Source of the DNA: an uncultured virus (IMG/VR IMGVR_UViG_3300020183_006727)
Taxonomy: Duplodnaviria; Heunggongvirae; Uroviricota; Caudoviricetes
Virus record (IMG/VR): IMGVR_UViG_3300020183_006727
DNA: 62,775 nucleotides
Direction: 5' to 3' (one strand)
The notes beneath the pieces are model-generated. The model was given only the letters and a program-made list of their open reading frames with translations, was not told the DNA's origin and did no database searches. The translations under genes and the position numbers were made by a program. Below are positions 7,070-62,775 of the stretch, one piece after another (position 1 is the stretch's first letter; each line of letters begins with the position of its first letter).

Positions 7070-8134
7070 ATGCGCAAGGTAGAATATTCCTGTTTTATAA
7101 ACAACACTGGGTTTGGGCATGCCGCCCTTGGCTATTTGCATGTGCTCAGGTCTTGCGGTCATCAAGTTAGAGTCAGAAGCATGCATCCTAGCATCAACCA
7201 GTCATGGATGTCGCATGACGACACTCAAGCCCTTCAGAATGATTTTTCTGGAGTCGCCCAAGTCGGCATATGGCATTCCATACCGCCAAGGTGGAACGGT
7301 CTCGCTCATGGCTCGGAGATGACGGTTGGGATATGCACATTTGAATGCGAAAACCCACCTGCAGATTGGATAAAAACTATAAACTCAAAATGTTCTCATG
7401 TTTGGTATCCAAGCAAGTTTTGTAAATCAGTATTTGAAAAAGCCGGGGTAAAAAAACCATCATCTGTTATATATCACATGGTTGGGGATCCATATTTTCA
7501 CGCCTCTCCCAAGGGCTATGATGGTGGCGATTTTGTCATACTGTCTGTGGGTACATGGAAGGCTAGGAAAAATTGGTCTTCGCTAATTCTTGGGTGTTCT
7601 ATGGCCATGTCTACCGGGCATCAAGTTCGTCTGTTTATCAAGACAGATCGACCCCATGCCGCACGTGCGGAGGTGGTCAGGATCGTGCCTGAATCTCTCA
7701 GGAAGCATTTCATGATTGTTGAGGGGGAGTTGACGGAAAGGAGCATGGCAGGGCTGTATTCGTCTTGCCACGCCTTCCTGTGTGCGTCAAGGGGTGAGGG
7801 CTTTTGCCTACCTGTTGCCCAGGCCATGGCGGCGGGGGTACCCATCCTGAGCACACAGTCTGGTGGAATTTCTGACTTTTTTGACGATTCCTGCGGCCTT
7901 GTCATAGAACCATCTGGTTTGGAGCAGGCTTCTATGGATGGATATCCACAATTCTCATCAAAGTATTGGCCAGTGATTACATCGGAGTCTGTGAGGAGGG
8001 CAGTTGTTGAAGCTGTTGAAAAATACTATGACATCGCATCCAAAAAGGCAAAAAATGCAAAAAAAAGGGCCGAGGAAATGTTTTCGATCTCTTCGGTTAG
8101 AAATCAGATGTCGGAGGCTTTGACCAGAAAATGA
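7070..8134 (+). CDS. Glycosyltransferase, GT-B fold (GT4 / Glycos_transf_1-like)
   Basis: Motifs NTGFGHAA, VWYPSKFCKSVF, FVILSVGTWKARKN and LYSSCHAFLCASRGEGFCLPVAQAMAAGVPILST (E-X7-E motif with Q in place of the second E). Confidence 0.9.
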   Translation: MRKVEYSCFINNTGFGHAALGYLHVLRSCGHQVRVRSMHPSINQSWMSHDDTQALQNDFSGVAQVGIWHSIPPRWNGLAHGSEMTVGICTFECENPPADWIKTINSKCSHVWYPSKFCKSVFEKAGVKKPSSVIYHMVGDPYFHASPKGYDGGDFVILSVGTWKARKNWSSLILGCSMAMSTGHQVRLFIKTDRPHAARAEVVRIVPESLRKHFMIVEGELTERSMAGLYSSCHAFLCASRGEGFCLPVAQAMAAGVPILSTQSGGISDFFDDSCGLVIEPSGLEQASMDGYPQFSSKYWPVITSESVRRAVVEAVEKYYDIASKKAKNAKKRAEEMFSISSVRNQMSEALTRK

Positions 8135-46782: not shown

Positions 46783-48497
46783 TGAGGGTTTTAATACCAT
46801 CAAACAGGCTTGGGTTCAGGTGTGGTTCACCGCAACATGCAGATTCTATAGAATGCTTATGCAATACATCAGCTGTACCGTATGGTGTTGTTGGCTATGC
46901 ATCTGTTCAATCGCTAGCTTCTGTTGGGTGCATCGTCACGCCGTGCATTGACGGATTTGCTGGTTCTTATAGAAATGGAAACGGCTTGCCAAGTTTACAC
47001 GACAAGTTGTCTAGCAGCCAATTTCTCGATTGTGAAGGGGAAAATCTATTTCTGCAGCCAAACTCCGACTATATGGAGTTGCTGACCAGAAGAAGGTTTA
47101 ATGCTCAAGAAGTGATCAATGGCATGACTTCTGAGTCTGGTGGCCACCTGCGTAGAGCATATGAAATAGTTCGTGGCTTCAGGAGAATCGAAGGAGTGTC
47201 CAACACTTCTTTGACATCCGATGAAATGTATTTTTCTATTATTGAGTCTTTGATTATGGACGTCAGAAGAAATTGCGATTTAGCTTTGGCTGCCACACGG
47301 AAAAAGACTAGTGTGATACCTTTGGCATGTGCGGATTTTATAAGTTCGGATTCAACAATGACATTTGGCGCGATCAGAGACGCCGCCTTTAGGGTTGGCA
47401 ACAGCAATTTCAGGTCAGAATTGCAAAGAAACCTTGCCATCGCTTGTGGCATATCTGGATTCGGCCTGAAGATGCCATTTATGGAAAGCTTAACCTCTTC
47501 CAAAGGCCAGTATTTGTATAACGTAAACTCGCGAGGCAACTTCTTTGTTCACATGAGTTCTGGTATGCCACACGGCTGGGTAAATTTGATAAACTCAACC
47601 AAGCTCCCTCAAGGCGCCACGTTTAGGGCAGTTGGGGCAAAAGATGCAAAGCCAAATTTTCAATATCAAATATTAGCTGATTCTTGCAAGTTGGCAGCTA
47701 GGGAGTCTGGTCTTTCTTTGGCACGTTTCGCAAAAACCATAGGTCAGCAAGATTCTATCATACTTTGCGTGTCTTCAGTCTTATCGAATGCCCTGATGGG
47801 CAGTTCGTGGTATGGTATATTACCGATACCAGAATATTTTATAGATGAATACATAAGACCACTATTGCGTGGAATTCACGACGGTGGTGGTAAGGTGGTG
47901 TACTTTGTGATCGGTGACAATATGGAAGAAATCTTATCTGTAGCCACTTCAAGCTCCCATGCTGACAGATTTATAGCACGAAGATCTCTTGAGTATCAAT
48001 TTTTTGGAAGAAGGATGATTTCTGGTCCAATTGACGAAAAAAGAGATGAAATCGGTCACGAAAATGCACTTGGTTTTTCATGGGATCATATAGTTGCAGA
48101 TCCAGAGCATGGTAACTGCATGCATGATTTGTTTTGGACAGACTTGGACCTATCTCGCATGATGGACTGGAAAGGTACAATATCTTCTTGTGCAGACAAT
48201 CAGGCCGCATGGTCCTCTTTGAGGTTTATGCATCCTGAATTGCCCGCAAGAAATCCAGTGCACGGGATGTCCATAGTATCTGGTCGGTATAATAGCAAGA
48301 ACGCAAATTCTGTTGCTTCTGGTGCACTCCTCAACACAAGGCAAATTGTTGCCATATTGAGATGGGAAATGGTAGAATGGACTCGTTGTCTGACCCGTCA
48401 TCTCAGGGCGCTCGCTGACACAAGCGCTAGATATGTTGCTTCAGAATCTCCTAGTTGGTCTGTTGACGCAGCAGGGGCGGTTGATATAGTGCGATGA
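46782..48497 (+). CDS. Hypothetical protein (571 aa)
   Basis: TGATG overlap upstream and ATGA overlap downstream; no confident family. Confidence 0.7.
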   Translation: MRVLIPSNRLGFRCGSPQHADSIECLCNTSAVPYGVVGYASVQSLASVGCIVTPCIDGFAGSYRNGNGLPSLHDKLSSSQFLDCEGENLFLQPNSDYMELLTRRRFNAQEVINGMTSESGGHLRRAYEIVRGFRRIEGVSNTSLTSDEMYFSIIESLIMDVRRNCDLALAATRKKTSVIPLACADFISSDSTMTFGAIRDAAFRVGNSNFRSELQRNLAIACGISGFGLKMPFMESLTSSKGQYLYNVNSRGNFFVHMSSGMPHGWVNLINSTKLPQGATFRAVGAKDAKPNFQYQILADSCKLAARESGLSLARFAKTIGQQDSIILCVSSVLSNALMGSSWYGILPIPEYFIDEYIRPLLRGIHDGGGKVVYFVIGDNMEEILSVATSSSHADRFIARRSLEYQFFGRRMISGPIDEKRDEIGHENALGFSWDHIVADPEHGNCMHDLFWTDLDLSRMMDWKGTISSCADNQAAWSSLRFMHPELPARNPVHGMSIVSGRYNSKNANSVASGALLNTRQIVAILRWEMVEWTRCLTRHLRALADTSARYVASESPSWSVDAAGAVDIVR

Positions 48498-51400
48498 AGT
48501 CTGACTACGATCAGTTCGACCTACTCAACAGACTCGTACAGGACGGGTATGTTAAGATCACCAGGGGTTCCTTGGGGGCAACCTCGTCGTCCTACGCACC
48601 TATTGCCTATCTAGAGGGTCTATCTTCGGATCCATTAAAGGCGCAGCCATTGTCTGGAAACCTGTCTTCTGGAGTTGCCCCCGATGTAAAAACAATTGGG
48701 TTGGACTCTTCAAATACGGGGGTTGGTCTATCGGTTGAGACTGGCTCTGCTGTAATTGCTGGGGCTTTTGATGCTGGCGCTAGTGTTGTACTCATTGATT
48801 CAGGTGGCTTCACAAGAACTGATTTTGATTTCATAGCAAGATCCGTGATGGGCGTAAGTTGTGTGCTTTCAAAGCAGGTAGTCACAACTTTTGAAGAAGC
48901 AAAAAACGCCGTACTTTTGGCTGCATCTGCAACCATGGGATGCCAGGTTGATGTGCTAGTCAAGCACGACCATAATCATTTTGTGAAGTCTGATCGAGGG
49001 AACCTTGGAGAAGCACTGTTTATTTTGTACCAAGTTTTGGGTTCTGATTATGGGATCAACCCAATATCTGTATATGACAATCTTTTTTCTGACAATTCAT
49101 TTGATTATGACACCGATCTTTTACGCATATTTAAGAGTGATGGTGATTGGGGTGTCGGGGCAACTGCAACCCATTTCAATATTGGCAGACCATTCCTAGC
49201 GGCGGCCCACAGGCTCAACTTGCAAGAATCACTGTTCGCCGCAGCAGGATGCAGGTTGAACTGCGATTTCGATCCTTGGCCTGCAGTCGATTTCATGTCC
49301 CTTGATGATTTCAATGGTTTCAACATGTGGGAAAATGGGTGGGACGAGAGCGAGACATCATCGGGAGGCTACCTTTGGCTGAGAGGATGGCCATATCAAA
49401 AGCCATCTGGGATAAGCACCATCAGCAGGAGGGTGAGGCCGTTTGTAGTCATGGACAGGTGGGGCAGTCCACACCCCACAGCACCGTTTGATTATGATTT
49501 TGACAATCTCACGCTCATTTACAAGAGATTGAAATTGGAAGACGTAAATCATATTGTTCAAGATGTTAGCGAAGTATTCACTTGTCAAAAAGATGCACAA
49601 ATAAATAGCATATGTGTTGATGCTTCTGCTGGTAATTATTCATTTAAGGTTACTGATCCAGCTTTTGCCGGAGATGGCAACCGCCCTCAAAATTATGCAG
49701 TAAACAGGTGGCTCATCAACAGTCACAGCAGCACGCCACTTAGTTCTCAGCTCCCATGGTCTAGTGGAATCACACATGGTGTTGCTAACGATGCTGTCAG
49801 AAAAGCCATCGACGGTAGCAACATGAACGACAGCATAATGCCTGGGCTTTTGTGTGACAGGGGTTATTTCGGGTTTGATACATCCAACAACCAGCCCAAG
49901 CCAATACCATCTGGCCAGAGGGGATATTATCCCGTTGATATCCCTTTTTGTCACTGGTGGAAAGGAGACTCTCGTTCTCGCGTTGAGCCATCTAACCCTG
50001 ATTCTTGGAGATATCCAGTATGGTTTCAGCCAGATCTGGAGGAGTATACATACACTGATAATGCTGGAGTGAGCAGAACCGTTCGTCTGCCATCGCTTTT
50101 TCACGATAATCTGATCAAGTTCTATTGCGGGACTCTCGATGCCAGTGGACAACCGACCGCAAACGGTGGTGGATTCATACAGTATATGATCAGGAAGCTT
50201 TGCTCGTATGCGAAGCAGTCACCGAACGTTCCGAATGTGAATGCGATTGGTCAAGGGCTATTTGCAAATGTTGATGCTTTTGGCAATGGCTCAAACCCAT
50301 ACAGGCTGCCATTTGACCTATCTAGGGATGGCAACCTTCTTGACTACATCGTTTATGATTTCATAGTTGAGTTCGGAGGAGACAAGACTGGCACGCTTTG
50401 GGATTGGATACAGTTGGTGCGCGGCTATGGACTGATGGATGAATGGTTGACCAGGCAGTCCAGCAAGCCAAAATGGAGCAACCTATCTTGGAACGGCTTT
50501 ACTGGTGTGAGATCTATACTAGAAGCAGGGAATGGCAGATACGGGTCTGGTTTGACTGGCTCTGGGAGCATATCTGAAGGGCTCCGGTCTCTGGCTGAGA
50601 CTCGATGGGACGGCTCGGTAGAGCATCCCATGCTGAGTCGTCTCCAGCTTGTGGTTTCAATACTAGAAAATGAAGTTTTTGCGCTCATGACCAAAGCCAT
50701 AGAGGTGACTCTGAAGGCAGAAGGGTGCATGCGTCCAGAAAGTAGCCTTCCATATTATGGCTACCAGTGTGTTTCAAGATTGGATGCAGACACCACTTTT
50801 AAGGTTGGCCAGTTCCCTGAGAAATATGGAGAAAACTACACATCGATATCTGTAGGTCATTCGCCAATCATATTCTACACCTTGAAAGACGGGTCTTTGA
50901 GATGGGTTACCACGCAAGGTAATTTTGCAGGATATGATCTGCTGCCACCTCCTGAACTTGCTTCTCTCAAATACAAGCAGATAGCAGTTGGATATGGTGT
51001 TGTTGCCGGTTTGACAACAGATGGAAATGTTGTGGCATGGGGTGGACCTGCTCAAGAGCATTGTGATGTTACTGCTTCAAAAGCTGCCGACGCCTTCACA
51101 GAACAGTTGAATTCACTTGGTCGTAAGGTCAGGAAAATTGCTGCAGGTGGATCTCATTTCTTGGCGCTGTTGGACAACGGATCTGTAGTTGCCTGGGGAG
51201 ACAATTCATCTGCTCAGTTGAGCGATCCCAACACAGTTTGGACCAGGGTGGGAAGTATACCGAGACCCATCGTAGGAGATGCGACGCTCATAACAAATTA
51301 TATTCCATACATTGACTTCGAGTACAAGCAAGACGCGTCCTCATATCTGGGGTATTTCCCCTGCATCACAGATGATCAGGACAGTTGCGTTCTTGATGCT

Positions 51401-54400
51401 TCTGGCGACCCTGTGCTGCAGGGCAATTCTTGCCAAACCAGCCCTCAAAACAGGCGGTATAGGCTTTTCAGGTTCAATGCTTTGGGGTGCCCGTTCCGTG
51501 GCGGCGATCTTCCCAACAGTAATTTTGACACTCCAGCTCCATCGTATCCTGCTTCGGGTTCAACTTCTTGGGCAGGCCTAAATTGGGCAGTACATACTGG
51601 TGCTCCCAACGACTACCAGTTTGCCAGGTCAACTGTTTCTTCTGGTGTCAATGCCAGCCTCAATGGATCTTGGATTAGGTCTACAGCAAATATACTCACA
51701 GGCGGCAGTCAGGGCTATACAGATACCTCAGGAAGTTTGATATCCAATTCAATATTTGGAACATCTGGCCAGTCGTATGTTGACATCGCTGCTGGCAGGT
51801 TTCACAATCTTCTTCTCACGGACGATGGGAATATAGAAACATGGGGCGGCAATTTTTTCTATGCTGTTACGGGTAGCGGGCTTCAGACCAATGGATATGT
51901 TAGGATGGGGTCGGGAAGGTCCAATGACACTTCTGAATCCTCAACCATGGTTGAGGCCTCAACCAGCAAGTGGATAGAAAATGGCAGGGAATATCCATAT
52001 CCAAACGCACCCGCTGGCGATAATACAGCTCCAACTGTAAAGACCCTAAAAACCACTGCAAATTCAGTTTCTGCAATATCATGCGGATATTACAATAACT
52101 ATGCAATCAAACCAGATGGTTCTATATTTGCATGGGACAGGAACGAATGGGGAGAATCTCTGCCGACTGGCAATATCCCAGCAGGTCCATTCAAGCAGGT
52201 GGCTGGCGGTTACCACCATGCAGTTGCCCTGCGCAGAGACGGAACTGTTGCCTGTTGGGGAGAAAATAACGACGGTGAATGCAACGTGCCAACGCAGTTT
52301 CAGAATGCCACGACCTCTAACTGTGTTTGGGTTGGCGCAGGTCAAAGATTCACCGTTGCGCTCAAAGCAGATGGCACACTATATGCCTGGGGAGACCTGT
52401 CGAAATTGGTTTCGTCTGGCACCCAAGGTATGCGGATCTCCCTTGCGGAGAGAATATATCTTCCAGGAACTCCGCTAATTTCTGCCCATCCTGGCTCTGA
52501 TGGCACCATGTCAAATCAACTTAGTTGGCAGGGCAAGTATTCTCTTTTTGAATGCTCCGGAGACATTCCCACTGAGATTATCTATAGCGGCCATGGTCAG
52601 TACTGGCTCTACACGTCGTTCGTTGATGTTCCTAATATGCAGAGTGGTCTGATTAATTCTCTTTATCATGGTTCTAATCTATATAAAGTGGGAACAATAG
52701 ATGACAGGGGTTCTTGGCCGCTTGTTTTGATGGGAGGTTCTGGTAATTACGGTGGCTTCTTGAAGCTGAAAACGGATGGAACATTGTCAAGTGGAGTAGA
52801 TCCACTTGACAGGTCTGGGCCTGAGGCGGAATTCAACCAAAATCAGTTGCCAGGGTCTAGGCTGACATGGGTGGGTAACGGCGCCAGGCAGAATGTTCCA
52901 ACCGCAAACGGATTCAGTTCATTTACCAAGGCACCAGCTCTCGTAGGTTCTGGTAATTTTGTATCTCCTCCAACTCCAGCACGTAGTGCCATGGAGCCAT
53001 TCGCTGATCTCAAGTATGGCATCTACGTGATCAAGCAGTGCGCCTACAGCCATCCATCGCAAACTTGTCTTGCATGGGTCGAGTGGCCTGGCGGCCATGG
53101 CCGTCCAGATGTTTCTCCAGTTGGATTCATATGGAATGAGGCGGACAGGCAACTTCCAGACGACGAGAGTTGGTCCAGTCGGTGGTATGGAGGAGGCGTG
53201 CGCAGCAGGGAGCTCGTGCACGGCTGGATGTGGTGGGAAAAGTTGGTTCATGCCATGCTGGTGGCTCAGGGTAACCCTCTATTCACATTCTGGTATGGAA
53301 GCGCAGAAAGAATATTCACAGGCAAATATGCAGCCCTTCCCGAGGGCATAGACGACACGGTGTTCAACAACACCACAGTAAACGCGGTTTTGGGCGACAT
53401 AGAGCGCGCTGTTGGCTCACGTCGTCGTTGGAGCCTTGCCTTCCGTCATGAGTATCAGTTCAGTTTTGCTGAAACAGATTCTTCCGACACGGCTGCGTCT
53501 CTTGTGGGTGGAACCATACCACCTCTCACTCCTGCGCAGATGAAGCCATGCATCACGTGTGTCAAGGTGGAAGAGGCAGATGACGGCTCATCTCCTGCGT
53601 ATTTGCTCTTCAGACTTTCTGTTCCCACGCCGACCGAAGTCCCCGATATAAGTCCTAATGAGCAGTATCCTCCGAATAACAGGATACTGAATCTGAAGAA
53701 ATTCGTTGTTTCGGTCATGTCTGGATCGGATGAGATTGCCAGATTGCGTCCGAATCCGAAGCGTCCTTGTGGCATGTGGTTTAGTATGCCATATGAGGAG
53801 GGGATGACTCCGCCCACGTTCGAGATGGTGGAAGACACTGGGTTGGTCAGTCGACGAGATGGCTTGACCACCCACAGGCTCGAAGGAACCAAGATCGCAG
53901 GGTATGCAAATGAATCTGCGACGACACCTAGTGTTAAAGATACCTCTTGGTATAGAGACTCTAGGTTCAGCCTTCATACCCAGTGGAGTGGACTCAACTG
54001 CGTTTTGCTCTATGATCAAAATGTCAGGAACATGCTGGGTGCTGTCACAAACGGTTCTGACTGCGAGGTTTGTCTGCTGAGCAACTGCTCTGCTCCAAAT
54101 CTTTCTCCCGCATCCCTGTCATTCTATAAGCGTAAGCACCTCACTGGGCCCTCGACATTTGAGCGGCTTTCTTTGCCATCCTGTGGTGCAGCCACTATTG
54201 CCAAGTTGACTGGCGCTCGTGCTGCTTTCAAAGCTAATTTCGATATAGATGCTCAGGTCAGGGCTGCAGCACAATGGAATCCTGATTTTGCAATTGTATT
54301 TTTGCGGAGTTCGGACGAGCCGATGTGGTTCCCCAAGCCCGCCTCGACACCATCTCCAGATTGGGATTGGAGCAGGGACGATGCTGTTTTTGATCAGTGG

Positions 54401-57400
54401 AAGTTGTTCGCAAACGATGGAACTGTGGCGACAGCGGTTGGAATGGCTATGAATCCCATGTCTGAGTATGTGACGGCGTCGGTCAAATACGGTATTCGCT
54501 TGGTTGCGTACTTCAAAATGTTCTCTTCTGTTGAGTTAGATGTTCAGGCCAACAATACAAATTCTAGTTTGAATAGGTTTGGTCTTTCCGCGCCTGCTGG
54601 TGGATGGAGGATATCAGAGGTTTTCCACAAGGCTACTGATATATTTGGCAATCTGATCACTGTAAGTGAGCATGGCAATTCTGGCATGACTCTCTTGTCC
54701 ATCATCTCTCCGTCGACAAGATTTTTGATGGCTGATTGGTGCAAAGAAGTTGCAAGACAGGGCATGGCAAAGGATGGTTCTGGAAACCCAATTCTTGGCT
54801 CTGACGGATATCCGCTTGGTGTTCGCGGTATGTATTGGGATAGCATGCCGATAGACCCATTCAGGGGAGACTTCTCTGAAGATACCGTGAGTTGGGCAAC
54901 GTATGAGGGTCTTTTTAACAACAGCAGACCCCCAGGCCAAATACCCAAGCCAGATCCATCGATTTTCCCATTTCCCCTCACTAACGCAAAAGTTTCAGCC
55001 AACCCAACTCTTGCCCCCCTACGAAATTGGCTCAGCAGTCAAAACACAACAAATATAACTGATCTTCTCTCTCTTGACAATCCTGCTGTTGGCTGGGCAG
55101 AATCAAGCCAGGCCAGCCCTGTTACTTTTAAATCTGAAGTCCGAAGATACTTGGAATGGTTGAGGAATAAGGAAAAAGACTTCATGAAGTTCATCGCGGA
55201 CACGATGAAGGCTTATGGGCATCCAGATTTTGCAATCATTCCATCTGGCATACATTCTGGTCATTCCTCATCAATTTTTGCCAATCAGCATGACTCTGCA
55301 TATTACTCTGCTGGCTTCAAGTCTGAACTTGGTGTGGAACAGATATTTGACTTGCGGATGCCAATCAACAATACCAACCAAGCAACTCCTCCTGACATGT
55401 GGTTGGCACAAATTGCAGACATGCTGATGTCAAGGAGCAGGGATGGCAAGCCCTCCCTGATGTGGCAGCCGCTGTCTCTGTGGAGCCCCTCAGAGGCAGA
55501 TGCGCTCCAACCTCCAACGGGCACACAACAGAGTTTGGTGACATGCACAAGCAATTTGGACACCGCCTATCAGCAAGCGAACGGCAGATCTACATTCTTG
55601 AGCGGGAAGGGGATTGTCCGCGACCATGCAATCAGGGGTTTCCTGGAGAACAAACTGCTCATAACATGGGCATGCGGTAACATTTTTGATGCAATGTATT
55701 TCTCTGGCGCTGGATATTCAGGAGAAAATCCTGATTCCTTAACGGGGGTGGAAAACAACGACACTTCAGTGCCTTCGGATAATGCCTCTGTATACGTCAG
55801 AAGGCTGGCATCCATGGTTTCAAGTCTTAAGGACGGTGGCTTGCCCAGAGCCAAGAGAAGTAGGGTACCCTGGGTGGCAGTGGTTCACAGCCCAGAGGCT
55901 GCTTTTGGAGCTTCCATACAGGGAAATATTGCAAATGTCAAGTGGCAGCAATACTATTGGCCACTCATGGGTGCAATTCATACATGTGTGGAGAATGGCG
56001 TGCCTGTTTCTGTGGTGCAGGATGACTCTCTAGACCTTTATGATGAATTGGGGATTGGAGTTTTGGTTATACCTTTTGCCCGTTCTGCAGTTCCAGCAGC
56101 AACTGCTAAAATATTGAATAGGTTCAATGGCGGTGTCATATGGATGCAGGAGGAGTTCCTCGACAGTCCTGATCCTAGAGCTGGAACTGGGTACACGCCG
56201 CCGCTAGCAACCCTCAAGAATGAGTTTCATGACACCTCTCTCATGGCTGGCTCGTCCATAACCAAAGCGAAGAATGCCAGAAATCTTCTCTGGAATCTAA
56301 TAACCATCCGTGGGGGTGAGCCGCCCATCTCGGTGACAATTGTGCCAACTTCGTCTAGCCCAACTCCTGATCCTCTCGCTGTTCCATGTCACGGATTTGA
56401 GGTGTGTGTTGGAGACGGTAGTGCGCAACACGTGATAATCACATCAGCTACAGATTTTGGCTGGACGGACATGACGAAGCACATGAACCCGCTCCAGTAT
56501 TCAACACGCAGGCATCTTTTAGAAAACATTCCTTCAGGTGCAAGACCAATACTCAGCATGTGCAGTACATCAGCGTTTGTCACAGCTGACAGCTTCTACA
56601 AGACCACCTATACAGGATCTGATCAGCTCATTCCGCTCGAGCACATGCCCTTGCTGGGTAAGTTGAATTTCTATGCAGGTACTCCAAGAACATGGGATAG
56701 ATACGTCAGATTCGATTTCAAGTTCTCATCAACACAGTTGCCCGTGCGTGCAAGACAGTTCCTACTCAACAAGGAGCGTGGAAAATTCGATCCAATAGAC
56801 ATGGTAATAGAGGGTGGCTATTCAGAAATGAACGATATGATTGGGGAACGCACCGTCGAAGGTGTGTCAATCATCCCATGTTCATATGATCTTGGGTCGG
56901 TAATAGACGTGCAGTTGCGCAATAGGATCAAAGATGACGATGTCACTGAATTTATAGTCAATGCAGGGCAGGGGTCTTATGGTAATCCGTGCTCCAATCC
57001 AGGGCTTTCTTGCAACTTCATAGGTAGGTTGAGGTGCCTGTTTGACGGGCTGGCGACTGCAGCAACAGAAGATGACAAGATCATCGTGAGAATGTACTGT
57101 GATGGACCCGAGAATGACCCCGATGTATCCAAGATAGTTCTTGCAAAGCAGATTTTTGAAGATCTGCGCGAAAGTGTTGTTGCGAACCCATCGACTTGGC
57201 AGCGTGTGATCGATGAGCCAAACAGCTTAACAGGTTTTTCTTCGTATTGCCCATTCGGATTTGTGGTTGCGAGGGACAGGGTGGGCAACCCCTCCAGCCC
57301 TACAGACATCACCAGAATTATCACCGGTGTTGAGTTTCGAGGGAATTATGGCATTTCAATCCTTGCAGGTATGCTTCCATCCATTTCTGGGATGGTGCCA

Positions 57401-60400
57401 TCATGTCAGGCGCAACCCTTAGCTACGCCAGAAGTATTCTGTTCTGACAGTGAGGCAGTGTACACCCTCACCCCAGCAGACCAGTTGATGAGGGATCACA
57501 TTCTCGCCAAGCGTTCTTGGGCTAACTCTCTTGGTGCAAAGCCCATGCTGTTTGTGCGGGAAGATTCATCACCATCATCTCCATTCAGGAACATAGACGA
57601 TTTCGGCATGCCAATTCCCTCAGGAATTATCAGATATGTGAATGATCTCAAGTTTAATCTTGCCGCTGACACTGCGATTGGTTTTGCATCTGAAATAACA
57701 CATGTCATCATAGACCTGAAGAGTATTTTCCGTTCTGATGATGTTGTTTCTGAAGAATTCAATCGCCATTCTAGATGGGTTTCAAATCCAGTTGATATGC
57801 TTGACTCGGGGGATGCTCTCGGTAGCAGGGACACAATACTGCGAGAGGTGGCGGCAATCAACGGATTGTTACTAGAGACCATTGCTAAGCTCAAGGCTCT
57901 CCACCCGTCTGTAAGGTTTGGAATTTATGGGCTTGGCAATTTCAGAAACAATGGAAATGTCAGGGCTGCCTATTTTGAGTTATCAAGATTTTTCTCGGGA
58001 GACACCAATAGCCCCATCAGGAGTAGTTCGTCTTGGGCAAGGCAGGGTGTTGCAACGCGCATATCTGAAGTTTATGGACCTCTGCTGGACGCTGTTGATT
58101 TCGTTGCTGTTGAATGCATGCCTGCAGCCACAGGCTCAGCGAACAAGCAACAAATCTCTGCCAAGGTGGGTGTGGCAACAGACGCCATACTGCATCACTA
58201 CAACCAATCAAAGAAGACCCCCAAGCCTATATATGTCATCAACTTTGGCGTATTTCTTTCTCCCTCAGATCCGTCTTTCGACAACCATAACTGCAAGATT
58301 TCAAGATCTCAATTCAATTTCATATGCATACAGCCGTTCATGAGGCACAAAATTGATGGATTCATATTTGATGCCATCGAAAGAGATCTGAAGAGATCTG
58401 ATTTCTCAGGTTGTCCATCTGTTGGTGGCGCCATTTTCTCAAAGCCATGCTGGGAGCTTGGAACGGTGACATGTTCATCGATTGCCAAGGCCGAATATGC
58501 AGCTTCTTACAACATTCAGTCGATGGTTGTAGAGCTTGCAAACAGAACTGCAGATCCAGCGCGGATTGTGCGCCCAATCTGGGCTGGTACCTGGCGTGGC
58601 CCAGTGTCTGCAAGTTTGGATGCTGTTGATATAAACCAAAGCGATCAGGATTTAACAGCGTACACATATGTCAAGCCTATGGTTCCCCTGTACGGGCCAA
58701 CCATTACAGGTACATTCACGGATGGTGGTCAGAGTGCTCCTGCAACATTCATAAATACAGCCAGGTTCAACGCGGTTGTATCGTTGCTCCAAAGACTTCC
58801 ATCTGGCATGCGATCTCTGCGTATGCATTATTTCTATGAAGCCGGCGTCAACAAACGAATGTTCTATGACAACCTTGGCAATCCAGATCAATTTTCCACC
58901 ACTGGTGGGGTGATCGTTCCGTCCATATGGGCATCCAACGGAGTCATTACTGTAAAGAATGCCTGGACAATAGTCATAAACGCTCTCAAGAGTGGTGGTG
59001 CTCCACTCGATCATTTGGTTTTTGATTACGAAATGGGTGGCATATTTACCAGCTGGAATCTTAATGCGGACAAGGTTAATTCATATGCCAATAGGCCAGA
59101 ATTCTCCAAATCTTGGTTTGGCGTTGCCTCCTGGAAATACTGGTTCACCGATGGCGGTCGTTTTGATCTCAATTCTCAATTGGCGGAATTGATAAGTAAT
59201 TTGGGTAACCCGCATCCGCAGAACACCCCTGCATATCACTATTGGAATCGCGGTGTGTCTGCTATTGATGCAGCAAACCTCTACGAAGCATTCATGCCCA
59301 TAGGCAAGAATCAATATCCAGGTTTGAGCATGTCGAACTATCATGCATATTCGATTGCACCATGGGATCACGCCTATGATTCTGACGGGCACCATGATAT
59401 GCAGCAGGGTCTCGCTGGTAATGCCTCTGCTCCTTATCTGTATGGTCAATGGGATGACACATCGATATACTCTGTGGCAACTGATGACCCCACAAGACTG
59501 GTTCGCCTGGACCAGTCAAATGCCGCCACAACTCCCTTTGGACGGACACCTTGGAACTCTCTCTTATTGGCTCTGCAGACCTTGCGTGCTGTCAACAGAA
59601 ACTGCGGTGGGTCGCCGACAAGGCCATGGATAGCTCCAAGGTCGTGGGCTGGCGACGCCAGTGGAGTGGTCGGTTTTGTGGATTCTCCCATGTGGGACGA
59701 GTTGCTGCGTCATGCGTGCCTGACTGGGGTTGACCACATACATTCTTGGGAGCCTGACGGTCTTGCAGCAAATTTGAGAACAGACACCTTCTCCAGGATG
59801 GAAAAGATACTGAAGGAGGCTAATGAGCGTCTTGGCGGTTTCTCTCCGCATGTGGCTGCCAATCAGCGTTTGTCTTTCAATTCTGATTTCATAGTCAGCG
59901 GTGCTCAGGCAGTTGCTGGAGAATATTATGGAAAATGGGTGTGGCGCATCACCAGATCATCGCCTAATATATCTCTTTTTGGACCAAAGGGAGTCTTCAT
60001 AGACATGGATGCAGACGGAGGGGCGTGGTTGGTCACCGCCACCTCTAACCTTCCATCAATAACCACCCAAAACACATATGATCTGAATGACGCTAACAGG
60101 TATTATTGGTGGATATCTATGGGTGCTGGAGGAAGTACGCCAATAATAGGTGGCATGTCACAAACATGGGTGGCCCTGTGGCAGGGGGAGCACCGCCGAG
60201 GTTATGATTCTGGAGGAAACGAACACGATCCTTTGCCAAGGGCGTTTGAATGGAGCCCTGACCCTCAGAATTTTCAAACCAAAAGCCCTTGGCACAATGC
60301 GCTTTATGAGATGGTGATTGACGCATACATGTGGGGTGGCAGAAGCTTCTTATTGTGGATGCCATTTGGAGGTTACAGCTGGGGCGAAGAACCCGACACC

Positions 60401-62775
60401 GCTGCTACGGAAGGAGCCTCCTTTGTTTCTTACATAGAGTGGAAGAGGCGCTATCTGCGCACAACTCCTGATTTTACCCAGTCTCCAGGCTATGAGTGCA
60501 GGGAGTGCACTGCCGTGTGGAAGGGTGCATCTCATGCCATCAGGGCCTTGGTTCATGGTGTGATAATCCCTTCTTTGAGAACGCCCATTATATCTCCGTG
60601 CAATGTTATCCTCTATTTGACATCCAATCGAGGGTATCCATCTTACAGAAAACGCACCACAGCCATATGGGATTCTGAGTCAGGAACCTCCACACAAAAA
60701 GACAGCGCTTTTAAGGTGATGCTTGATGAGATGATTGCAGAAATCATTTTTATGGCAGGAGATGTTGCAAGCCCCACGAATGGTCGATTGAGCGTGTGTC
60801 TTGATGCTGCATCGCAAAGCGCAACTCCATCTGACATATCACTATTCAGATCTGCAGAAACCAATAATGATTACCAAACATACAGAACAGATTTCTTGGA
60901 GTTGTCTGATTGGTATGTCGCCACAAAACTGAAAGAGGCTGGTATTGAAGTTTTCTATGAGACGCGTGACTGGACCAGAAGGAAGAAGGCTTTCGGAGTT
61001 GATGATACCGTAACCTCCACCACAGGACTGCCGATTGATTGGGCAAATGTCCCGTTCTTCTCTGATGAATATTATCTTTGGTCTTTTGGTAATGAGTTCC
61101 CGTGGGTCCCATATGATGCACCAGAAAAGATATTGAGAGCATATAATATATCTTATCCGCTCTTAGATATGGGGGAAAAAGACCCATTCACAACAAATCA
61201 GTTTAGATCTTTACTTACTTTTATAGAAGAAGAGCCCGTAATTAAAAATTCACAAGATTTTACTAAAACTGGAAGAGTTCTTGCAAAACTTAAATCTAAT
61301 GACGGCTCAGTTTCTTTGGCAGAATATAACAATAGAAGAAATTTAGGATTACTCAAAATAGAAGAGGGCTCAGTTAGAGATTATATATCTCAAATAGATC
61401 AATACCTAATAGAGGTTCCAGAATCAAAAAATGTAGATTTATATATAAATGAATTAAAATTAACTGAAGCTTTTGATTGGGTTACTGAGGACGTTATTGG
61501 ATATCCTGCTGCCAATTGCACAAATGATCCATTCTTAATCAATCAATGGCATCACGACAAGATGGAATCTTGTGCCGCATGGGATATAGAGCCAGGAGAC
61601 ACTCAGGTTGTTGTGGCCATCATTGATACAGGAATTGATGTTGGTCATGAAGATTTAGAGGCAAATAGACTTCCTGCTTATAATGCTGTTTCGGGTACAA
61701 GAGGAGACGAAGGCGGTATAGCGCAAAATGGAATGCCCACCGTAGTTTTCTGCGGAGAGGGTGGCATGCATGGACCTCAAGTAACCGGATGTGCGGGTGC
61801 AATTGGGGGAAATGGAAAGGGTGTTTCTGGTACTGCAAAATCTATAAGTACAAGAAGTTTCAAAACTTCAAATTCGTTTTTCGCTGGTGGGTTGTTGTCG
61901 GATGTACTTTGGGCTTGTATAAAAGCAGCTGATGACGGTGCAAGAGTAATAGTAGTAAGCTACGGCTATATGGGTAGTCCTCAGTTTTATGCTGCAATAG
62001 AAACTACCGCTTCTTATTGTAGAACAAAAAACTGCCAAATATTTTTTGCAGCCGGTAATGTACCATCACTCAATTTATCTTCACCAACTCCTGCAAGTGT
62101 AATAGTTGTTGGGGCTACAGATTCCTCAGATAATAGATGGTATGGTTCTAGTTTTGGAGACGGCGTTGACATATGGGCTCCTGGCTCTTCAATATTGACA
62201 ACAACAGGAAGATTGTTAAGATTTGGCACTACAGATGCAACTAGCCCTGCGAATATTCAAAGAATAGATGAAATACTGCAATATTTAGATCAAAACCTTC
62301 CTTCTTTAATTGGAAAAAAAATCAGGCAAACAGTTAATGGAGTTGTTAATCAGGCAACAATACAACACTACAACAGCTGCAGTCTTTGGGGTCAATGCGG
62401 AGATCTCACTTCAAGTGGACGTTCTTTGTTCTTATTTAATGTAAAGGAAAGTTCTAGTGCATTCTGGAGCTGGGACCTTGTTACTAATCCTGTTACGATA
62501 GAAGATCATCCATCTTTAAATATTGATTATCAACAGGCTTTCCTTGTAGCTCCTAATGCAATAACACCGTATGTATCTGTAAGTGGTACAAGTTATGCTT
62601 CGCCAAATGCTGCTGGTGTTGCAGCTTTAATGATATCACTAAAACCAGACATAACATGTCAGCAGATAGAGGATATATTAAAATCCTCCGCCGATATCAT
62701 CCCGATAACTGGTCCAAATGGTTATTCCGCAAATGTTAAAAGAATAAATTCAAAAAAAGCCTTACAGGCAGTGCA
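48494..62775 (+). CDS. Giant polyvalent protein, at least 4760 aa, 3'-truncated by window edge: multiple GH-like TIM barrels, RCC1-like propeller, GATase-like domain and S8 subtilase
   Basis: ATG at 48494 overlaps the upstream TGA (MKSDYDQFDLLNRL...). Every segment I translated in this frame is open, and the terminal S8 codons are in the same frame. The supplied track has no ORF in this frame, as expected if no stop is reached. S8 triad: IIDTG (61625), MHGPQVTG (61769), SGTSYASP (62591). Confidence 0.9.
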   Translation, partial: MKSDYDQFDLLNRLVQDGYVKITRGSLGATSSSYAPIAYLEGLSSDPLKAQPLSGNLSSGVAPDVKTIGLDSSNTGVGLSVETGSAVIAGAFDAGASVVLIDSGGFTRTDFDFIARSVMGVSCVLSKQVVTTFEEAKNAVLLAASATMGCQVDVLVKHDHNHFVKSDRGNLGEALFILYQVLGSDYGINPISVYDNLFSDNSFDYDTDLLRIFKSDGDWGVGATATHFNIGRPFLAAAHRLNLQESLFAAAGCRLNCDFDPWPAVDFMSLDDFNGFNMWENGWDESETSSGGYLWLRGWPYQKPSGISTISRRVRPFVVMDRWGSPHPTAPFDYDFDNLTLIYKRLKLEDVNHIVQDVSEVFTCQKDAQINSICVDASAGNYSFKVTDPAFAGDGNRPQNYAVNRWLINSHSSTPLSSQLPWSSGITHGVANDAVRKAIDGSNMNDSIMPGLLCDRGYFGFDTSNNQPKPIPSGQRGYYPVDIPFCHWWKGDSRSRVEPSNPDSWRYPVWFQPDLEEYTYTDNAGVSRTVRLPSLFHDNLIKFYCGTLDASGQPTANGGGFIQYMIRKLCSYAKQSPNVPNVNAIGQGLFANVDAFGNGSNPYRLPFDLSRDGNLLDYIVYDFIVEFGGDKTGTLWDWIQLVRGYGLMDEWLTRQSSKPKWSNLSWNGFTGVRSILEAGNGRYGSGLTGSGSISEGLRSLAETRWDGSVEHPMLSRLQLVVSILENEVFALMTKAIEVTLKAEGCMRPESSLPYYGYQCVSRLDADTTFKVGQFPEKYGENYTSISVGHSPIIFYTLKDGSLRWVTTQGNFAGYDLLPPPELASLKYKQIAVGYGVVAGLTTDGNVVAWGGPAQEHCDVTASKAADAFTEQLNSLGRKVRKIAAGGSHFLALLDNGSVVAWGDNSSAQLSDPNTVWTRVGSIPRPIVGDATLITNYIPYIDFEYKQDASSYLGYFPCITDDQDSCVLDASGDPVLQGNSCQTSPQNRRYRLFRFNALGCPFRGGDLPNSNFDTPAPSYPASGSTSWAGLNWAVHTGAPNDYQFARSTVSSGVNASLNGSWIRSTANILTGGSQGYTDTSGSLISNSIFGTSGQSYVDIAAGRFHNLLLTDDGNIETWGGNFFYAVTGSGLQTNGYVRMGSGRSNDTSESSTMVEASTSKWIENGREYPYPNAPAGDNTAPTVKTLKTTANSVSAISCGYYNNYAIKPDGSIFAWDRNEWGESLPTGNIPAGPFKQVAGGYHHAVALRRDGTVACWGENNDGECNVPTQFQNATTSNCVWVGAGQRFTVALKADGTLYAWGDLSKLVSSGTQGMRISLAERIYLPGTPLISAHPGSDGTMSNQLSWQGKYSLFECSGDIPTEIIYSGHGQYWLYTSFVDVPNMQSGLINSLYHGSNLYKVGTIDDRGSWPLVLMGGSGNYGGFLKLKTDGTLSSGVDPLDRSGPEAEFNQNQLPGSRLTWVGNGARQNVPTANGFSSFTKAPALVGSGNFVSPPTPARSAMEPFADLKYGIYVIKQCAYSHPSQTCLAWVEWPGGHGRPDVSPVGFIWNEADRQLPDDESWSSRWYGGGVRSRELVHGWMWWEKLVHAMLVAQGNPLFTFWYGSAERIFTGKYAALPEGIDDTVFNNTTVNAVLGDIERAVGSRRRWSLAFRHEYQFSFAETDSSDTAASLVGGTIPPLTPAQMKPCITCVKVEEADDGSSPAYLLFRLSVPTPTEVPDISPNEQYPPNNRILNLKKFVVSVMSGSDEIARLRPNPKRPCGMWFSMPYEEGMTPPTFEMVEDTGLVSRRDGLTTHRLEGTKIAGYANESATTPSVKDTSWYRDSRFSLHTQWSGLNCVLLYDQNVRNMLGAVTNGSDCEVCLLSNCSAPNLSPASLSFYKRKHLTGPSTFERLSLPSCGAATIAKLTGARAAFKANFDIDAQVRAAAQWNPDFAIVFLRSSDEPMWFPKPASTPSPDWDWSRDDAVFDQWKLFANDGTVATAVGMAMNPMSEYVTASVKYGIRLVAYFKMFSSVELDVQANNTNSSLNRFGLSAPAGGWRISEVFHKATDIFGNLITVSEHGNSGMTLLSIISPSTRFLMADWCKEVARQGMAKDGSGNPILGSDGYPLGVRGMYWDSMPIDPFRGDFSEDTVSWATYEGLFNNSRPPGQIPKPDPSIFPFPLTNAKVSANPTLAPLRNWLSSQNTTNITDLLSLDNPAVGWAESSQASPVTFKSEVRRYLEWLRNKEKDFMKFIADTMKAYGHPDFAIIPSGIHSGHSSSIFANQHDSAYYSAGFKSELGVEQIFDLRMPINNTNQATPPDMWLAQIADMLMSRSRDGKPSLMWQPLSLWSPSEADALQPPTGTQQSLVTCTSNLDTAYQQANGRSTFLSGKGIVRDHAIRGFLENKLLITWACGNIFDAMYFSGAGYSGENPDSLTGVENNDTSVPSDNASVYVRRLASMVSSLKDGGLPRAKRSRVPWVAVVHSPEAAFGASIQGNIANVKWQQYYWPLMGAIHTCVENGVPVSVVQDDSLDLYDELGIGVLVIPFARSAVPAATAKILNRFNGGVIWMQEEFLDSPDPRAGTGYTPPLATLKNEFHDTSLMAGSSITKAKNARNLLWNLITIRGGEPPISVTIVPTSSSPTPDPLAVPCHGFEVCVGDGSAQHVIITSATDFGWTDMTKHMNPLQYSTRRHLLENIPSGARPILSMCSTSAFVTADSFYKTTYTGSDQLIPLEHMPLLGKLNFYAGTPRTWDRYVRFDFKFSSTQLPVRARQFLLNKERGKFDPIDMVIEGGYSEMNDMIGERTVEGVSIIPCSYDLGSVIDVQLRNRIKDDDVTEFIVNAGQGSYGNPCSNPGLSCNFIGRLRCLFDGLATAATEDDKIIVRMYCDGPENDPDVSKIVLAKQIFEDLRESVVANPSTWQRVIDEPNSLTGFSSYCPFGFVVARDRVGNPSSPTDITRIITGVEFRGNYGISILAGMLPSISGMVPSCQAQPLATPEVFCSDSEAVYTLTPADQLMRDHILAKRSWANSLGAKPMLFVREDSSPSSPFRNIDDFGMPIPSGIIRYVNDLKFNLAADTAIGFASEITHVIIDLKSIFRSDDVVSEEFNRHSRWVSNPVDMLDSGDALGSRDTILREVAAINGLLLETIAKLKALHPSVRFGIYGLGNFRNNGNVRAAYFELSRFFSGDTNSPIRSSSSWARQGVATRISEVYGPLLDAVDFVAVECMPAATGSANKQQISAKVGVATDAILHHYNQSKKTPKPIYVINFGVFLSPSDPSFDNHNCKISRSQFNFICIQPFMRHKIDGFIFDAIERDLKRSDFSGCPSVGGAIFSKPCWELGTVTCSSIAKAEYAASYNIQSMVVELANRTADPARIVRPIWAGTWRGPVSASLDAVDINQSDQDLTAYTYVKPMVPLYGPTITGTFTDGGQSAPATFINTARFNAVVSLLQRLPSGMRSLRMHYFYEAGVNKRMFYDNLGNPDQFSTTGGVIVPSIWASNGVITVKNAWTIVINALKSGGAPLDHLVFDYEMGGIFTSWNLNADKVNSYANRPEFSKSWFGVASWKYWFTDGGRFDLNSQLAELISNLGNPHPQNTPAYHYWNRGVSAIDAANLYEAFMPIGKNQYPGLSMSNYHAYSIAPWDHAYDSDGHHDMQQGLAGNASAPYLYGQWDDTSIYSVATDDPTRLVRLDQSNAATTPFGRTPWNSLLLALQTLRAVNRNCGGSPTRPWIAPRSWAGDASGVVGFVDSPMWDELLRHACLTGVDHIHSWEPDGLAANLRTDTFSRMEKILKEANERLGGFSPHVAANQRLSFNSDFIVSGAQAVAGEYYGKWVWRITRSSPNISLFGPKGVFIDMDADGGAWLVTATSNLPSITTQNTYDLNDANRYYWWISMGAGGSTPIIGGMSQTWVALWQGEHRRGYDSGGNEHDPLPRAFEWSPDPQNFQTKSPWHNALYEMVIDAYMWGGRSFLLWMPFGGYSWGEEPDTAATEGASFVSYIEWKRRYLRTTPDFTQSPGYECRECTAVWKGASHAIRALVHGVIIPSLRTPIISPCNVILYLTSNRGYPSYRKRTTAIWDSESGTSTQKDSAFKVMLDEMIAEIIFMAGDVASPTNGRLSVCLDAASQSATPSDISLFRSAETNNDYQTYRTDFLELSDWYVATKLKEAGIEVFYETRDWTRRKKAFGVDDTVTSTTGLPIDWANVPFFSDEYYLWSFGNEFPWVPYDAPEKILRAYNISYPLLDMGEKDPFTTNQFRSLLTFIEEEPVIKNSQDFTKTGRVLAKLKSNDGSVSLAEYNNRRNLGLLKIEEGSVRDYISQIDQYLIEVPESKNVDLYINELKLTEAFDWVTEDVIGYPAANCTNDPFLINQWHHDKMESCAAWDIEPGDTQVVVAIIDTGIDVGHEDLEANRLPAYNAVSGTRGDEGGIAQNGMPTVVFCGEGGMHGPQVTGCAGAIGGNGKGVSGTAKSISTRSFKTSNSFFAGGLLSDVLWACIKAADDGARVIVVSYGYMGSPQFYAAIETTASYCRTKNCQIFFAAGNVPSLNLSSPTPASVIVVGATDSSDNRWYGSSFGDGVDIWAPGSSILTTTGRLLRFGTTDATSPANIQRIDEILQYLDQNLPSLIGKKIRQTVNGVVNQATIQHYNSCSLWGQCGDLTSSGRSLFLFNVKESSSAFWSWDLVTNPVTIEDHPSLNIDYQQAFLVAPNAITPYVSVSGTSYASPNAAGVAALMISLKPDITCQQIEDILKSSADIIPITGPNGYSANVKRINSKKALQAV
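61224..62775 (+). repeat. S8 subtilase cassette, copy 2 (dispersed direct repeat of 19295-20843)
   Basis: Same framework DNA as copy 1 (the last ~190 bp differ at one base) with replaced loop segments. In frame within the giant ORF. Confidence 0.95.

Follow-up and report, generated by a model that had tools for sequence, protein, structure and literature searches.

The window analysed here is a stretch of 62,775 nt from an uncultured virus of the Caudoviricetes (IMG/VR record IMGVR_UViG_3300020183_006727), and it carries two paralogous cassettes of the subtilase family (peptidase family S8), termed A and B, each in frame within a different giant open reading frame (ORF). The two cassettes have an almost identical framework and differ mainly in short, sharply bounded patches, six or seven of which appear to align with the segments that form the substrate cleft of subtilisins. 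The account that we favour, at slightly better than an even chance, is that the pair constitutes a recombination mosaic of paralogous S8 modules whose patches are kept apart by selection for two specificities.

Two cassettes with a common framework and clustered patches

The segment 61224-62775 matches 19295-20843 with 86.95% identity over 1,579 columns, including 149 mismatches and 32 gap openings (blastn). The window holds all of cassette A and, 42 kb further on, 1,552 nt of B, and no other long repeat was found in it except for the serine-codon linkers adjoining the cassettes. At the protein level, 118 of the 523 aligned residue columns differ, and these columns are strongly clustered, with 64 adjacent pairs, whereas 10,000 shuffles gave 26.4 on average and never more than 43. 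When a patch is defined by at least three differing residues with at most three identical residues between them, 15 patches are obtained, or about 13 once neighbours are merged. The framework (382 codons) has only 23 nucleotide differences, corresponding to 98.0% DNA identity, whereas the patches (126 aligned codons) accumulate 154 differences (59.3% identity) together with 14 of the 15 gap codons of the alignment, the remaining one lying in the framework. The longest perfectly identical runs reach 125, 109, 102, 81 and 81 nt, and near-identical blocks extend up to 204 nt. In the first ~520 nt, exactly three differences are synonymous (19420, 19480 and 19693) and 18 are non-synonymous.

A preliminary description of this DNA, made from the letters alone, had already reported a conserved framework with around eleven replaced patches, and had named an even spread of differences with a dN/dS well below 1 as a result that would contradict it. 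Clustering beyond all 10,000 shuffles argues against such a spread, and the six patch pairs quoted at that time are reproduced verbatim in our protein alignment, although the number of patches is higher. The count of three synonymous differences in the first ~500 bp was exact, the 18 non-synonymous ones having gone unmentioned. The homology that had been delimited to 61224-62775 is present there but does not stop at 62775, since a metagenome contig continuing ORF B (L006) matches copy A up to coordinate 20996, inside a poly-Ser linker (blastn).

Silent divergence, selection and mutation spectrum

Framework and patches also differ at silent sites. Codons that encode the same residue with nucleotide differences amount to 5 of 368 in the framework and 6 of 37 in the patches (Fisher p=1.3e-4), with a pS of 0.016 and 0.283, respectively. 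Furthermore, 25 of the 103 replaced codons hold 29 nucleotide changes beyond those needed for the residue change. This silent excess, these surplus changes and the location of nearly all gap codons in the patches indicate that the patches are older than the framework. Two features by which concerted evolution can be recognized are found here, namely the presence of both copies in one genome and a silent divergence that varies strongly from one part of the alignment to another. For the cassette as a whole, pN is 0.126 and pS 0.083, which gives an omega of 1.57 (Fisher p=0.027), in keeping with the diversifying selection put forward in the preliminary description.

A recent duplication followed by very strong positive selection, acting through point mutations in the loops without any recombination, would agree with the low pS of the framework, with an omega above 1 and with the dominance of replacement changes (72, 62 and 43 mismatches at codon positions 1, 2 and 3). 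However, the silent and surplus changes are concentrated in the patches along with 14 gap codons, transversions (105) outnumber transitions (72), and the ratio of patch dN to framework dS would have to be ~42, so that we regard this scenario as very unlikely.

Targeted hypermutation by a diversity-generating retroelement (DGR) or a similar templated mutator was also considered, as the variation resides in short tracts of a phage host-interaction gene region, like that of known DGR targets. The 177 mismatches show no adenine specificity (57 are at an A in copy A and 34 at an A in copy B), codon indels are present, and both copies are long coding modules instead of a template/variable-repeat pair. 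A Pfam scan of the window, which covered the 16 ORFs with 272 aa or more, showed no reverse transcriptase, and neither did the 80 of 112 ORFs scanned, with PHROGs only, in a 130-kb record (G003) that overlaps the first 20.7 kb of the window. A DGR was therefore rejected, and a mutator of this kind is hardly credible here.

Independent assemblies recover both copies

Two IMG/VR contigs of other assemblies also contain copy A, with 99.9% and 100% identity. Copy B was not found in IMG/VR but is reproduced with both of its flanks in a 103-kb metagenome contig (that of L006; 99.96%) which, by coordinate arithmetic, starts at ~20718, in the final part of copy A, and includes the whole of copy B, which places both copies in one genome. 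In four of four sequencing runs, an 18-kb or 13.7-kb Logan contig leads from the unique B flank into the first B-type patch with no difference, and B-type Logan contigs, again without differences, tile most of the cassette.

The window stops within a ~141-nt identical tract at which three independent assemblies break, as shown by the window end, the end of contig L002 (20715) and the start of the L006 contig (~20718). As the last letter falls exactly 127 nt past the last difference between A and B, the window end is a repeat-induced contig break bearing the signature of a k=127 assembly, and not a biological boundary. These coincident breaks could be taken to mean that one copy is chimeric or a collapsed strain variant, an objection that the preliminary description had itself raised. 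Such an artefact is extremely improbable, given the recovery of A in two other assemblies and of B in one, with unique flanks, the junction of the B flank to B-type patch 1 in all four runs, and the presence of A and of 1,552 nt of B at distant positions of the window itself. Since an identical tract of 141 nt suffices to break three independent assemblies, modules of this type are probably under-reported in metagenomic phage genomes.

Table 1. Cassettes A and B, their host ORFs and the patches that distinguish them. Coordinates refer to the window; hyphens within residue strings are gaps.
Feature	Position, locus A	Position, locus B	Strand	Basis or remark
Giant ORF A, 1,900 aa	18799..24501		+	ORF list; Pfam Peptidase_S8 E=1.1e-29
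Poly-Ser linker 5' of cassette A	19240..19293		+	translation
S8 cassette A (515 aa)	19297..20841		+	in frame within ORF A
3' linker of cassette A, QALGD + poly-Ser, homologous to the linker after cassette B	20842..20996		+	blastn, alignment
Giant ORF B, first 4,760 aa, open at window end		48494..62773	+	RCC1 repeats + S8 cassette B (Pfam RCC1_2, Peptidase_S8)
S8 cassette B (516 aa), paralogue of cassette A		61226..62773	+	in frame within ORF B
Putative prodomain/N-terminal region, three small patches: IKNS / -NNI, SVR / LPK, FLIN / LLGS		61241..61543	+	alignment
Catalytic Asp codon, DTG	19693-19695	61625..61627	+	alignment
Patch around catalytic His: B FCGEGGMHGPQVT, A L--EEFQHGTGVA	19816-19848	61748..61786	+	includes Thr-to-Pro in B; A residues 174-184
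Catalytic His codon, = thermitase His71	19831-19833	61769..61771	+	alignment
Patch: B TSNSFFAGGLLSDVL, A IANG-WAGAGWANIS	19927-19968	61865..61909	+	= thermitase 104-116; A residues 211-224
Patch: B VVSYGYMGSPQFYAAIET, A NISYSFLSSPNLHSPIEA	20011-20064	61952..62005	+	= thermitase 131-146; A residues 239-256
Oxyanion-hole Asn codon	20119-20121	62057..62059	+	alignment
Patch right after oxyanion Asn: B V-PSLNLSSPT--, A AQTTVCPASPNTI	20122-20160	62060..62089	+	B three codons shorter; A residues 276-288
Two patches: ATDSS / STDIN, WYGSS / SDFSN	20185-20223	62114..62152	+	clear silent differences at conserved Thr and Asp codons
Patch at entry to insert: B LTTTGRLLRFGTTDAT, A PSTWARTLQF-TVYQS	20266-20310	62195..62242	+	alignment
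Two large patches inside the unique insert	20440-20550	62372..62473	+	pLDDT <50 at residues 386-396, 412-414
Patch just before GTS: B FLVAPNAITP, A YILANNG---	20617-20637	62540..62569	+	A residues 441-447
Catalytic Ser codon, GTS	20659-20661	62591..62593	+	alignment
Last 127 nt of the window, same sequence as in copy A	20717-20843	62649..62775	+	last A/B difference 20716 / 62648

Predicted fold and position of the patches

Judging from sequence and predicted fold, both modules are thermitase-like S8 proteases, with a proteolytic activity that is putative. PF00082 matches ORF A with 104.1 bits and ORF B with 87 bits (cut-off 21.8), and cassette A matches thermitase with E=5e-24 in a phmmer search. 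Both copies display the DTG, H(G), GN and GTS motifs in subtilase order and in register with thermitase (His179 corresponding to His71), and the catalytic Asp, His and Ser and the oxyanion Asn are thus kept in both, as had been reported before. In copy B, the residue after His-Gly is a Pro (61775-61777, HGP); copy A and 97% of 114 family homologues have a Thr at this position (HGT).

An AlphaFold2 model of copy A, the copy for which a structure was predicted, was built from 119 sequences and reaches a pLDDT of 85 and a pTM of 0.80. It superimposes on thermitase 1thm with a Z of 42.2 and an rmsd of 1.6 Å for 272 of 279 residues (model range 96-514, 35% identity), and Foldseek retrieves the same structure with E=1.3e-21. 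Three parts can be distinguished in the cassette, namely a putative prodomain (residues 1-97), a thermitase-like catalytic core (98-328 and 446-515) and a 118-aa insert (329-445) for which no counterpart in the 114 family homologues, no Pfam match and no usable ESM Atlas hit was found. Residues 11-91 are modelled as strand-helix-strand-strand-helix-strand with a pLDDT of 93-97, the order of elements typical of subtilisin propeptides. The Foldseek alignments to pro-forms (fervidolysin 1r6v and pro-subtilisin 3whi) span 520-561 columns, about 100 more than those to mature enzymes, and the VIA structure alignments begin at residue 96, past this region. On the basis of the model, each cassette is probably preceded by its own prodomain.

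As to the catalytic core, six or seven patches align with thermitase/subtilisin segments that would form the S4, S2, S1 and S1'/S2' subsites (Table 1). The alignment places Trp220 of A, in patch 211-224, at Trp112 of thermitase, and the Ser-Tyr-Ser of A, in patch 239-256, at Ser133-Leu134-Gly135. The numbering offset between thermitase and subtilisin Carlsberg and the roles of residues 156, 166, 217 and 218 are assumed here, and the segment directly after the oxyanion Asn is presumably the rim of S1. Among the residues of subtilisin Carlsberg named in PMC5821440, Tyr104 is assigned to S4, the loop 98-102 (Ser98-Gly102) to S2, and Leu126, Ala152 and Gly154 to S1. The patches are not merely the most variable loops of the family, since the entropy of their columns is barely higher than that of the framework (1.96 versus 1.72 in 114 homologues; Mann-Whitney p=0.07).

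The cassette as a module of giant proteins

In ORF A, the cassette is framed by two poly-Ser linkers, with an N-terminal domain in front of them and a C-terminal part of ~1,160 aa behind. ORF B continues past the window end for 738 residues found in contig L006, which brings its full length to ~5,497 aa; neither the 386-aa module before cassette B nor the ~213-aa domain after it has a Pfam match. A related phage, the nearest relative that was found, represented by a 164-kb record (G004) whose proteins are ~80-86% identical to those of the present phage, encodes orthologues of both giant genes. Its orthologue of ORF A is shorter (1,342 aa) and aligns only with residues 1-164 and 713-1900 (1-142 and 734-1900 by blastp), with one uninterrupted poly-Ser linker where the present phage has linker, cassette and linker. 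In its orthologue of ORF B, a poly-Ser linker likewise leads directly from residue 3858 to 5339 (numbering of the full ORF B), and no cassette match was found across the whole 164-kb record. As both orthologues are devoid of it, the cassette is, by this sequence comparison, an accessory plug-in module. It would have been gained or lost at the poly-Ser linkers, in ORF B together with the neighbouring modules, and the serine-codon repeats would be an obvious recombination substrate for such events. The preliminary description was right about the duplication but had missed this plug-in nature. The clean presence or absence of a module within poly-Ser linkers suggests how giant phage proteins may gain and lose domains.

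Several other features of these proteins deserve mention. RCC1-type beta-propeller repeats occur in two giant ORFs (8131-16107 and 48494-62773; Pfam RCC1_2, E=2.6e-5 and 4.2e-38). The domains of the giant proteins are connected by poly-Ser linkers of extreme length, as in the continuation of ORF B (L006:7549-9762) and at window positions 19240-19293 and 20857-21000, one run comprising ~230 residues that are nearly all Ser. In the related phage, the presence or absence of modules falls exactly at such linkers, and the two modules before and after cassette B (window 60068-61225, and L006:8260-8900 after the first long linker) are absent from its orthologue.

One may wonder whether the S8 modules serve the giant proteins that carry them, either by autoprocessing in cis at the prodomain junction or by maturation and trimming of the domains joined by poly-Ser, in which case the loop differences would be neutral, relaxed or tuned to internal cleavage sites and not to host proteins. 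In line with this, each cassette seems to carry a prodomain, as suggested by the topology of the model and the Foldseek matches to pro-forms, and its activation should therefore cut the giant protein; the unusual HGP motif of copy B also fits. On the other hand, both giant proteins exist in the related phage without the module, which is thus dispensable for their maturation, A and B have the same presumed prodomain tail and junction (VIGYPAANCTNDP) but different cleft loops, and an omega above 1 speaks against a simple relaxation. We consider self-processing decidedly unlikely. The absence of the module from the related phage and the identical prodomain tail next to differing cleft loops lead us to favour virion proteases acting in trans: the giant proteins would be parts of the virion, their proteases would act on envelope proteins of the host, and the two copies would differ in specificity. 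The preliminary description had gone further and seen variable surface proteins of the host as the targets, an idea that is conjectural.

Further cassette versions in lake metagenomes

Beyond A and B, further versions of the cassette are found in lake metagenomes, where the preliminary description had proposed that additional copies and mosaics be sought. The most informative one, L007, is a contig with B-locus flanks on both sides and an A-like cassette, in which 203 sites are of A type, 17 of B type, 11 novel and 6 different from both. The A and B contexts share only ~18 nt at its 5' junction, which is too short for L007 to be a k-mer chimera. Its last patch is neither of A nor of B type but of the type of P0070, a 327-aa fragment that is 67-71% identical to the cassette, and a third, longer form of the patch preceding GTS (ASTAINNG) is common to L007 and P0070. 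At the 77 covered positions that differ between A and B, P0070 has the B residue in 31 cases, the A residue in 15 and neither in 31, counts that fit accelerated patch evolution and mosaic ancestry alike; the 91 columns in which A equals B and P0070 differs are inflated by ~58 trailing linker columns. A more distant relative, P0072, is 63% identical and holds a fourth version of the His loop. The third version, decoded as FNGDMSQHGTAVV, is present in Logan contigs of three of the four runs with framework differences of its own that B does not have.

A third upstream flank was likewise seen in Logan contigs of three of the four runs, and a loose end of P0070 type in run X1. The 30-nt consensus of this flank had no match in viral_contigs, in 15 loci, or, with up to two mismatches allowed, in records G002 and G003. 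Several cassette versions occur side by side in these lake runs, with exact framework words of 31 nt or more in common. The summed depth of Logan contigs, which are too short to phase patches, is 2-8 times higher for the cassette than for the flank in three of the four runs, a value that does not give a copy number. Besides, two islands of ~37 nt (window 61422-61459 and 61613-61650) recur exactly, in up to four of four runs, in contigs that differ on both sides, which suggests that more divergent relatives of the cassette exist in the same waters. In a search among longer proteins, only ordinary S8 relatives were found besides P0070, with up to ~32% identity (and one short local match of 40%), and a search among proteins of near length gave the same outcome, with up to 40% identity. 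Among shorter proteins, a search that covered 30-87 aa gave no match, a size range that says little about the cassette. The versions seen are thus A, B, L007, P0070, P0072 and a further His-loop version, and the cassettes form a small family of discrete versions, without open-ended diversity. The earlier depiction as an antibody-like hypervariable protease is not supported by this handful of versions.

These data bear on the possibility of a cassette library at the population level, in which B-type patches would be imported piecemeal from co-infecting relatives by short-tract recombination and thereby allow a combinatorial switching of specificity, which corresponds to the preliminary interpretation in its strong form. 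The exact framework words shared by several versions in the same lake runs, the mixed states of P0070, the P0070-type last patch of L007 and the elevated contig depth, which is no copy number, are all compatible with it. Yet only about six versions are known and most patches travel as A- or B-type sets, as illustrated by the single block of 203 A-type sites in L007. Furthermore, the third His-loop version has framework differences absent from B, and shared ancestry explains the mixed states of P0070 equally well. No silent donor copies were found in the window or in the 100-kb and 130-kb records (one cassette each and an unrelated small S8 gene), a check that covered about half of the estimated genome. 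Such a library is in our view unlikely.

Probable origin of the mosaic

Taken together, these observations point to a recombination mosaic whose patches are probably held apart by selection. According to this scheme, recombination at the poly-Ser linkers would add or remove the module, which this lineage has at both loci. The framework would be kept or made alike by homologous recombination or gene conversion involving both loci and probably also related cassettes of co-occurring phages, and the patches, much older in their divergence, would stay different. Either the framework of two old paralogues would have been homogenized, or diverged patches would have been imported into a young duplicate. 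The patches would stay different most likely through selection for two substrate specificities, since six or seven of them lie on subsite segments, the catalytic residues are kept and dN exceeds dS. Recombination or gene conversion had been proposed as the source of the mosaic in the preliminary description, and the heterogeneity of silent sites, the surplus nucleotide changes and the A-like cassette at the B locus all lend it support.

Several points weigh against this interpretation. Only two full cassette sequences are available, from one genome, with L007 as the third sequence at the DNA level, and the exchange between loci is seen in one contig of 2.8 kb (L007). Three or four of the six silent differences in patches adjoin indels, where the alignment is uncertain. 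As the patches were defined by residue differences, an omega computed for patches is inflated and only that of the whole cassette is unbiased, with a p value that is modest. The clustering of patches at the cleft depends on the sequence alignment to thermitase and on subsite assignments that are in part our assumption. Moreover, three patches are situated in the prodomain or N-terminal region and the two largest in the insert, where model confidence is low, so that the earlier statement that the patches line the S4-S2' cleft holds for six or seven of them, on the strength of the thermitase alignment and the fold match, and not for these others. The putative prodomain has no Pfam match even at E<=5. 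Finally, copy B may be impaired, since a Pro replaces the 97%-conserved Thr of the HGT motif.

A broader and rather doubtful extension is that huge phages of lakes share a pool of interchangeable pro-subtilase cassettes, whose framework tracts would serve as recombination handles and whose virion-borne proteases would be retargeted to different envelope proteins of the host. Loop segments or whole cassettes may then be swapped between loci and between co-infecting phages, and plugged into giant tail proteins via the poly-Ser linkers. If true, proteases would have their own equivalent of the mosaicism of tail fibres or of cassette variation of the pilS type. The mosaic itself, if our reading is correct, represents one enzyme scaffold in two versions, with the cleft re-tooled and the rest kept alike by recombination, and hence a natural experiment in the engineering of protease specificity. 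There would also be a hint that proteases, and not only glycan depolymerases, are employed by some huge phages against the surface layers of their hosts.

Genomic context

The window is one block of co-directional and tightly packed ORFs, many of them giant, and the stretch is present in 20 lake or freshwater sequencing runs. Upstream, G003 encodes a major head protein (E=2.8e-66), a portal, a large terminase, a head-tail adaptor and a minor tail protein, as well as PhoH, a ribonucleotide reductase and a sigma factor. Since the giant ORFs are placed after head, neck and tail genes, they probably encode components of the tail, of the baseplate or of fibre-like structures. Together, G003, the window and the L006 contig tile more than 233 kb, and the CheckV completeness of 22% for the 100-kb record and 29% for the 130-kb record leads to an estimated genome size of 420-460 kb.

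A third S8 gene, small and stand-alone (266-275 aa; G003:C1:41792-42592, equivalent to G002:C1:52334-52927), lies ~21.7 kb upstream of the window start among head and neck genes; it matches phrog_3677 (E=2.3e-19) and PF00082 (E=2e-10) and is no copy of the cassette. A gene for a GT4-type glycosyltransferase is found at 7070-8134 of the window, amid the giant and presumably structural genes, and a second glycosyltransferase is encoded close to the head genes of G003. An ORF of 1,886 aa (G003:C1:48402-54062), situated between the genes for the portal and the major head protein, matches a head-maturation protease with its N-terminal part (phrog_18299, E=3e-14) and is an unusually large fusion.

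Comparison with known systems

The cassettes resemble thermitase and other subtilisin-type S8 enzymes (1thm, 1dbi) in their fold and in the order of the Asp-His-Ser triad and the oxyanion Asn. They differ from them in being phage-encoded, in residing between poly-Ser linkers inside proteins of 1,900 and ~5,497 aa, in occurring as two mosaic copies, and in the unique insert of 118 aa ahead of the Ser motif. A likeness to fervidolysin-type subtilases is apparent from the Foldseek alignments to 1r6v, which extend over the N-terminal region of the cassette. Four giant database proteins of ~3,000 aa (P0071, P0121, P0125 and P0154) contain three fervidolysin-type units of prodomain and S8 domain each, and they likewise use this unit as a repeated building block of very large proteins; their identity to the cassette is however only 34-37%, and the putative prodomain of the latter has no Pfam match. 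Among phage proteins in BFVD, S8 folds are found in a 'baseplate wedge subunit' of Synechococcus phage S-SCSM1 and a 'proximal tail fiber' of S-CAM1, annotated by their depositors as tail or baseplate parts, and in an 'extracellular serine proteinase' of Agrobacterium phage Atu_ph07, but the resemblance is structural, with an identity of 8-15% (Foldseek E 1e-4 to 5e-15). The open-access literature searched yielded no account of subtilase modules that occur in phage proteins as mosaic pairs.

With respect to mechanism, phage DGRs, such as that of Bordetella phage BPP-1 acting on Mtd, likewise produce localized variation in a phage host-interaction gene region, whereas here indels occur, the adenine-specific pattern is lacking and the scanned ORFs contain no reverse transcriptase. 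Cassette-based antigenic variation, as in Neisseria pilE/pilS and Borrelia vlsE, also combines a conserved framework around variable mini-cassettes with the exchange of whole or partial cassettes between loci, which L007 exemplifies. Unlike in those systems, no silent donor array was found, both copies are in-frame modules of the expressed type and there is no sign of programmed, high-frequency switching, a single alternative allele of the B locus (L007) representing the new mosaic combinations seen at one locus. Concerted evolution by gene conversion with selected islands of divergence is known from opsin genes, the major histocompatibility complex (MHC) and the hypervariable regions of Neisseria opa. 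The cassettes share with such paralogues mostly near-identical silent sites and sharply bounded, old segments at specificity-determining positions, and differ from them in that the host is a phage, the segments belong to the active-site cleft of a protease, and the copies lie 42 kb apart in two different giant genes. The pair is thus an instance of a known phenomenon, the mosaicism of paralogues through recombination, with islands of divergence under selection, and what would be new is that it concerns the cleft of a protease and plug-in modules within giant phage proteins.

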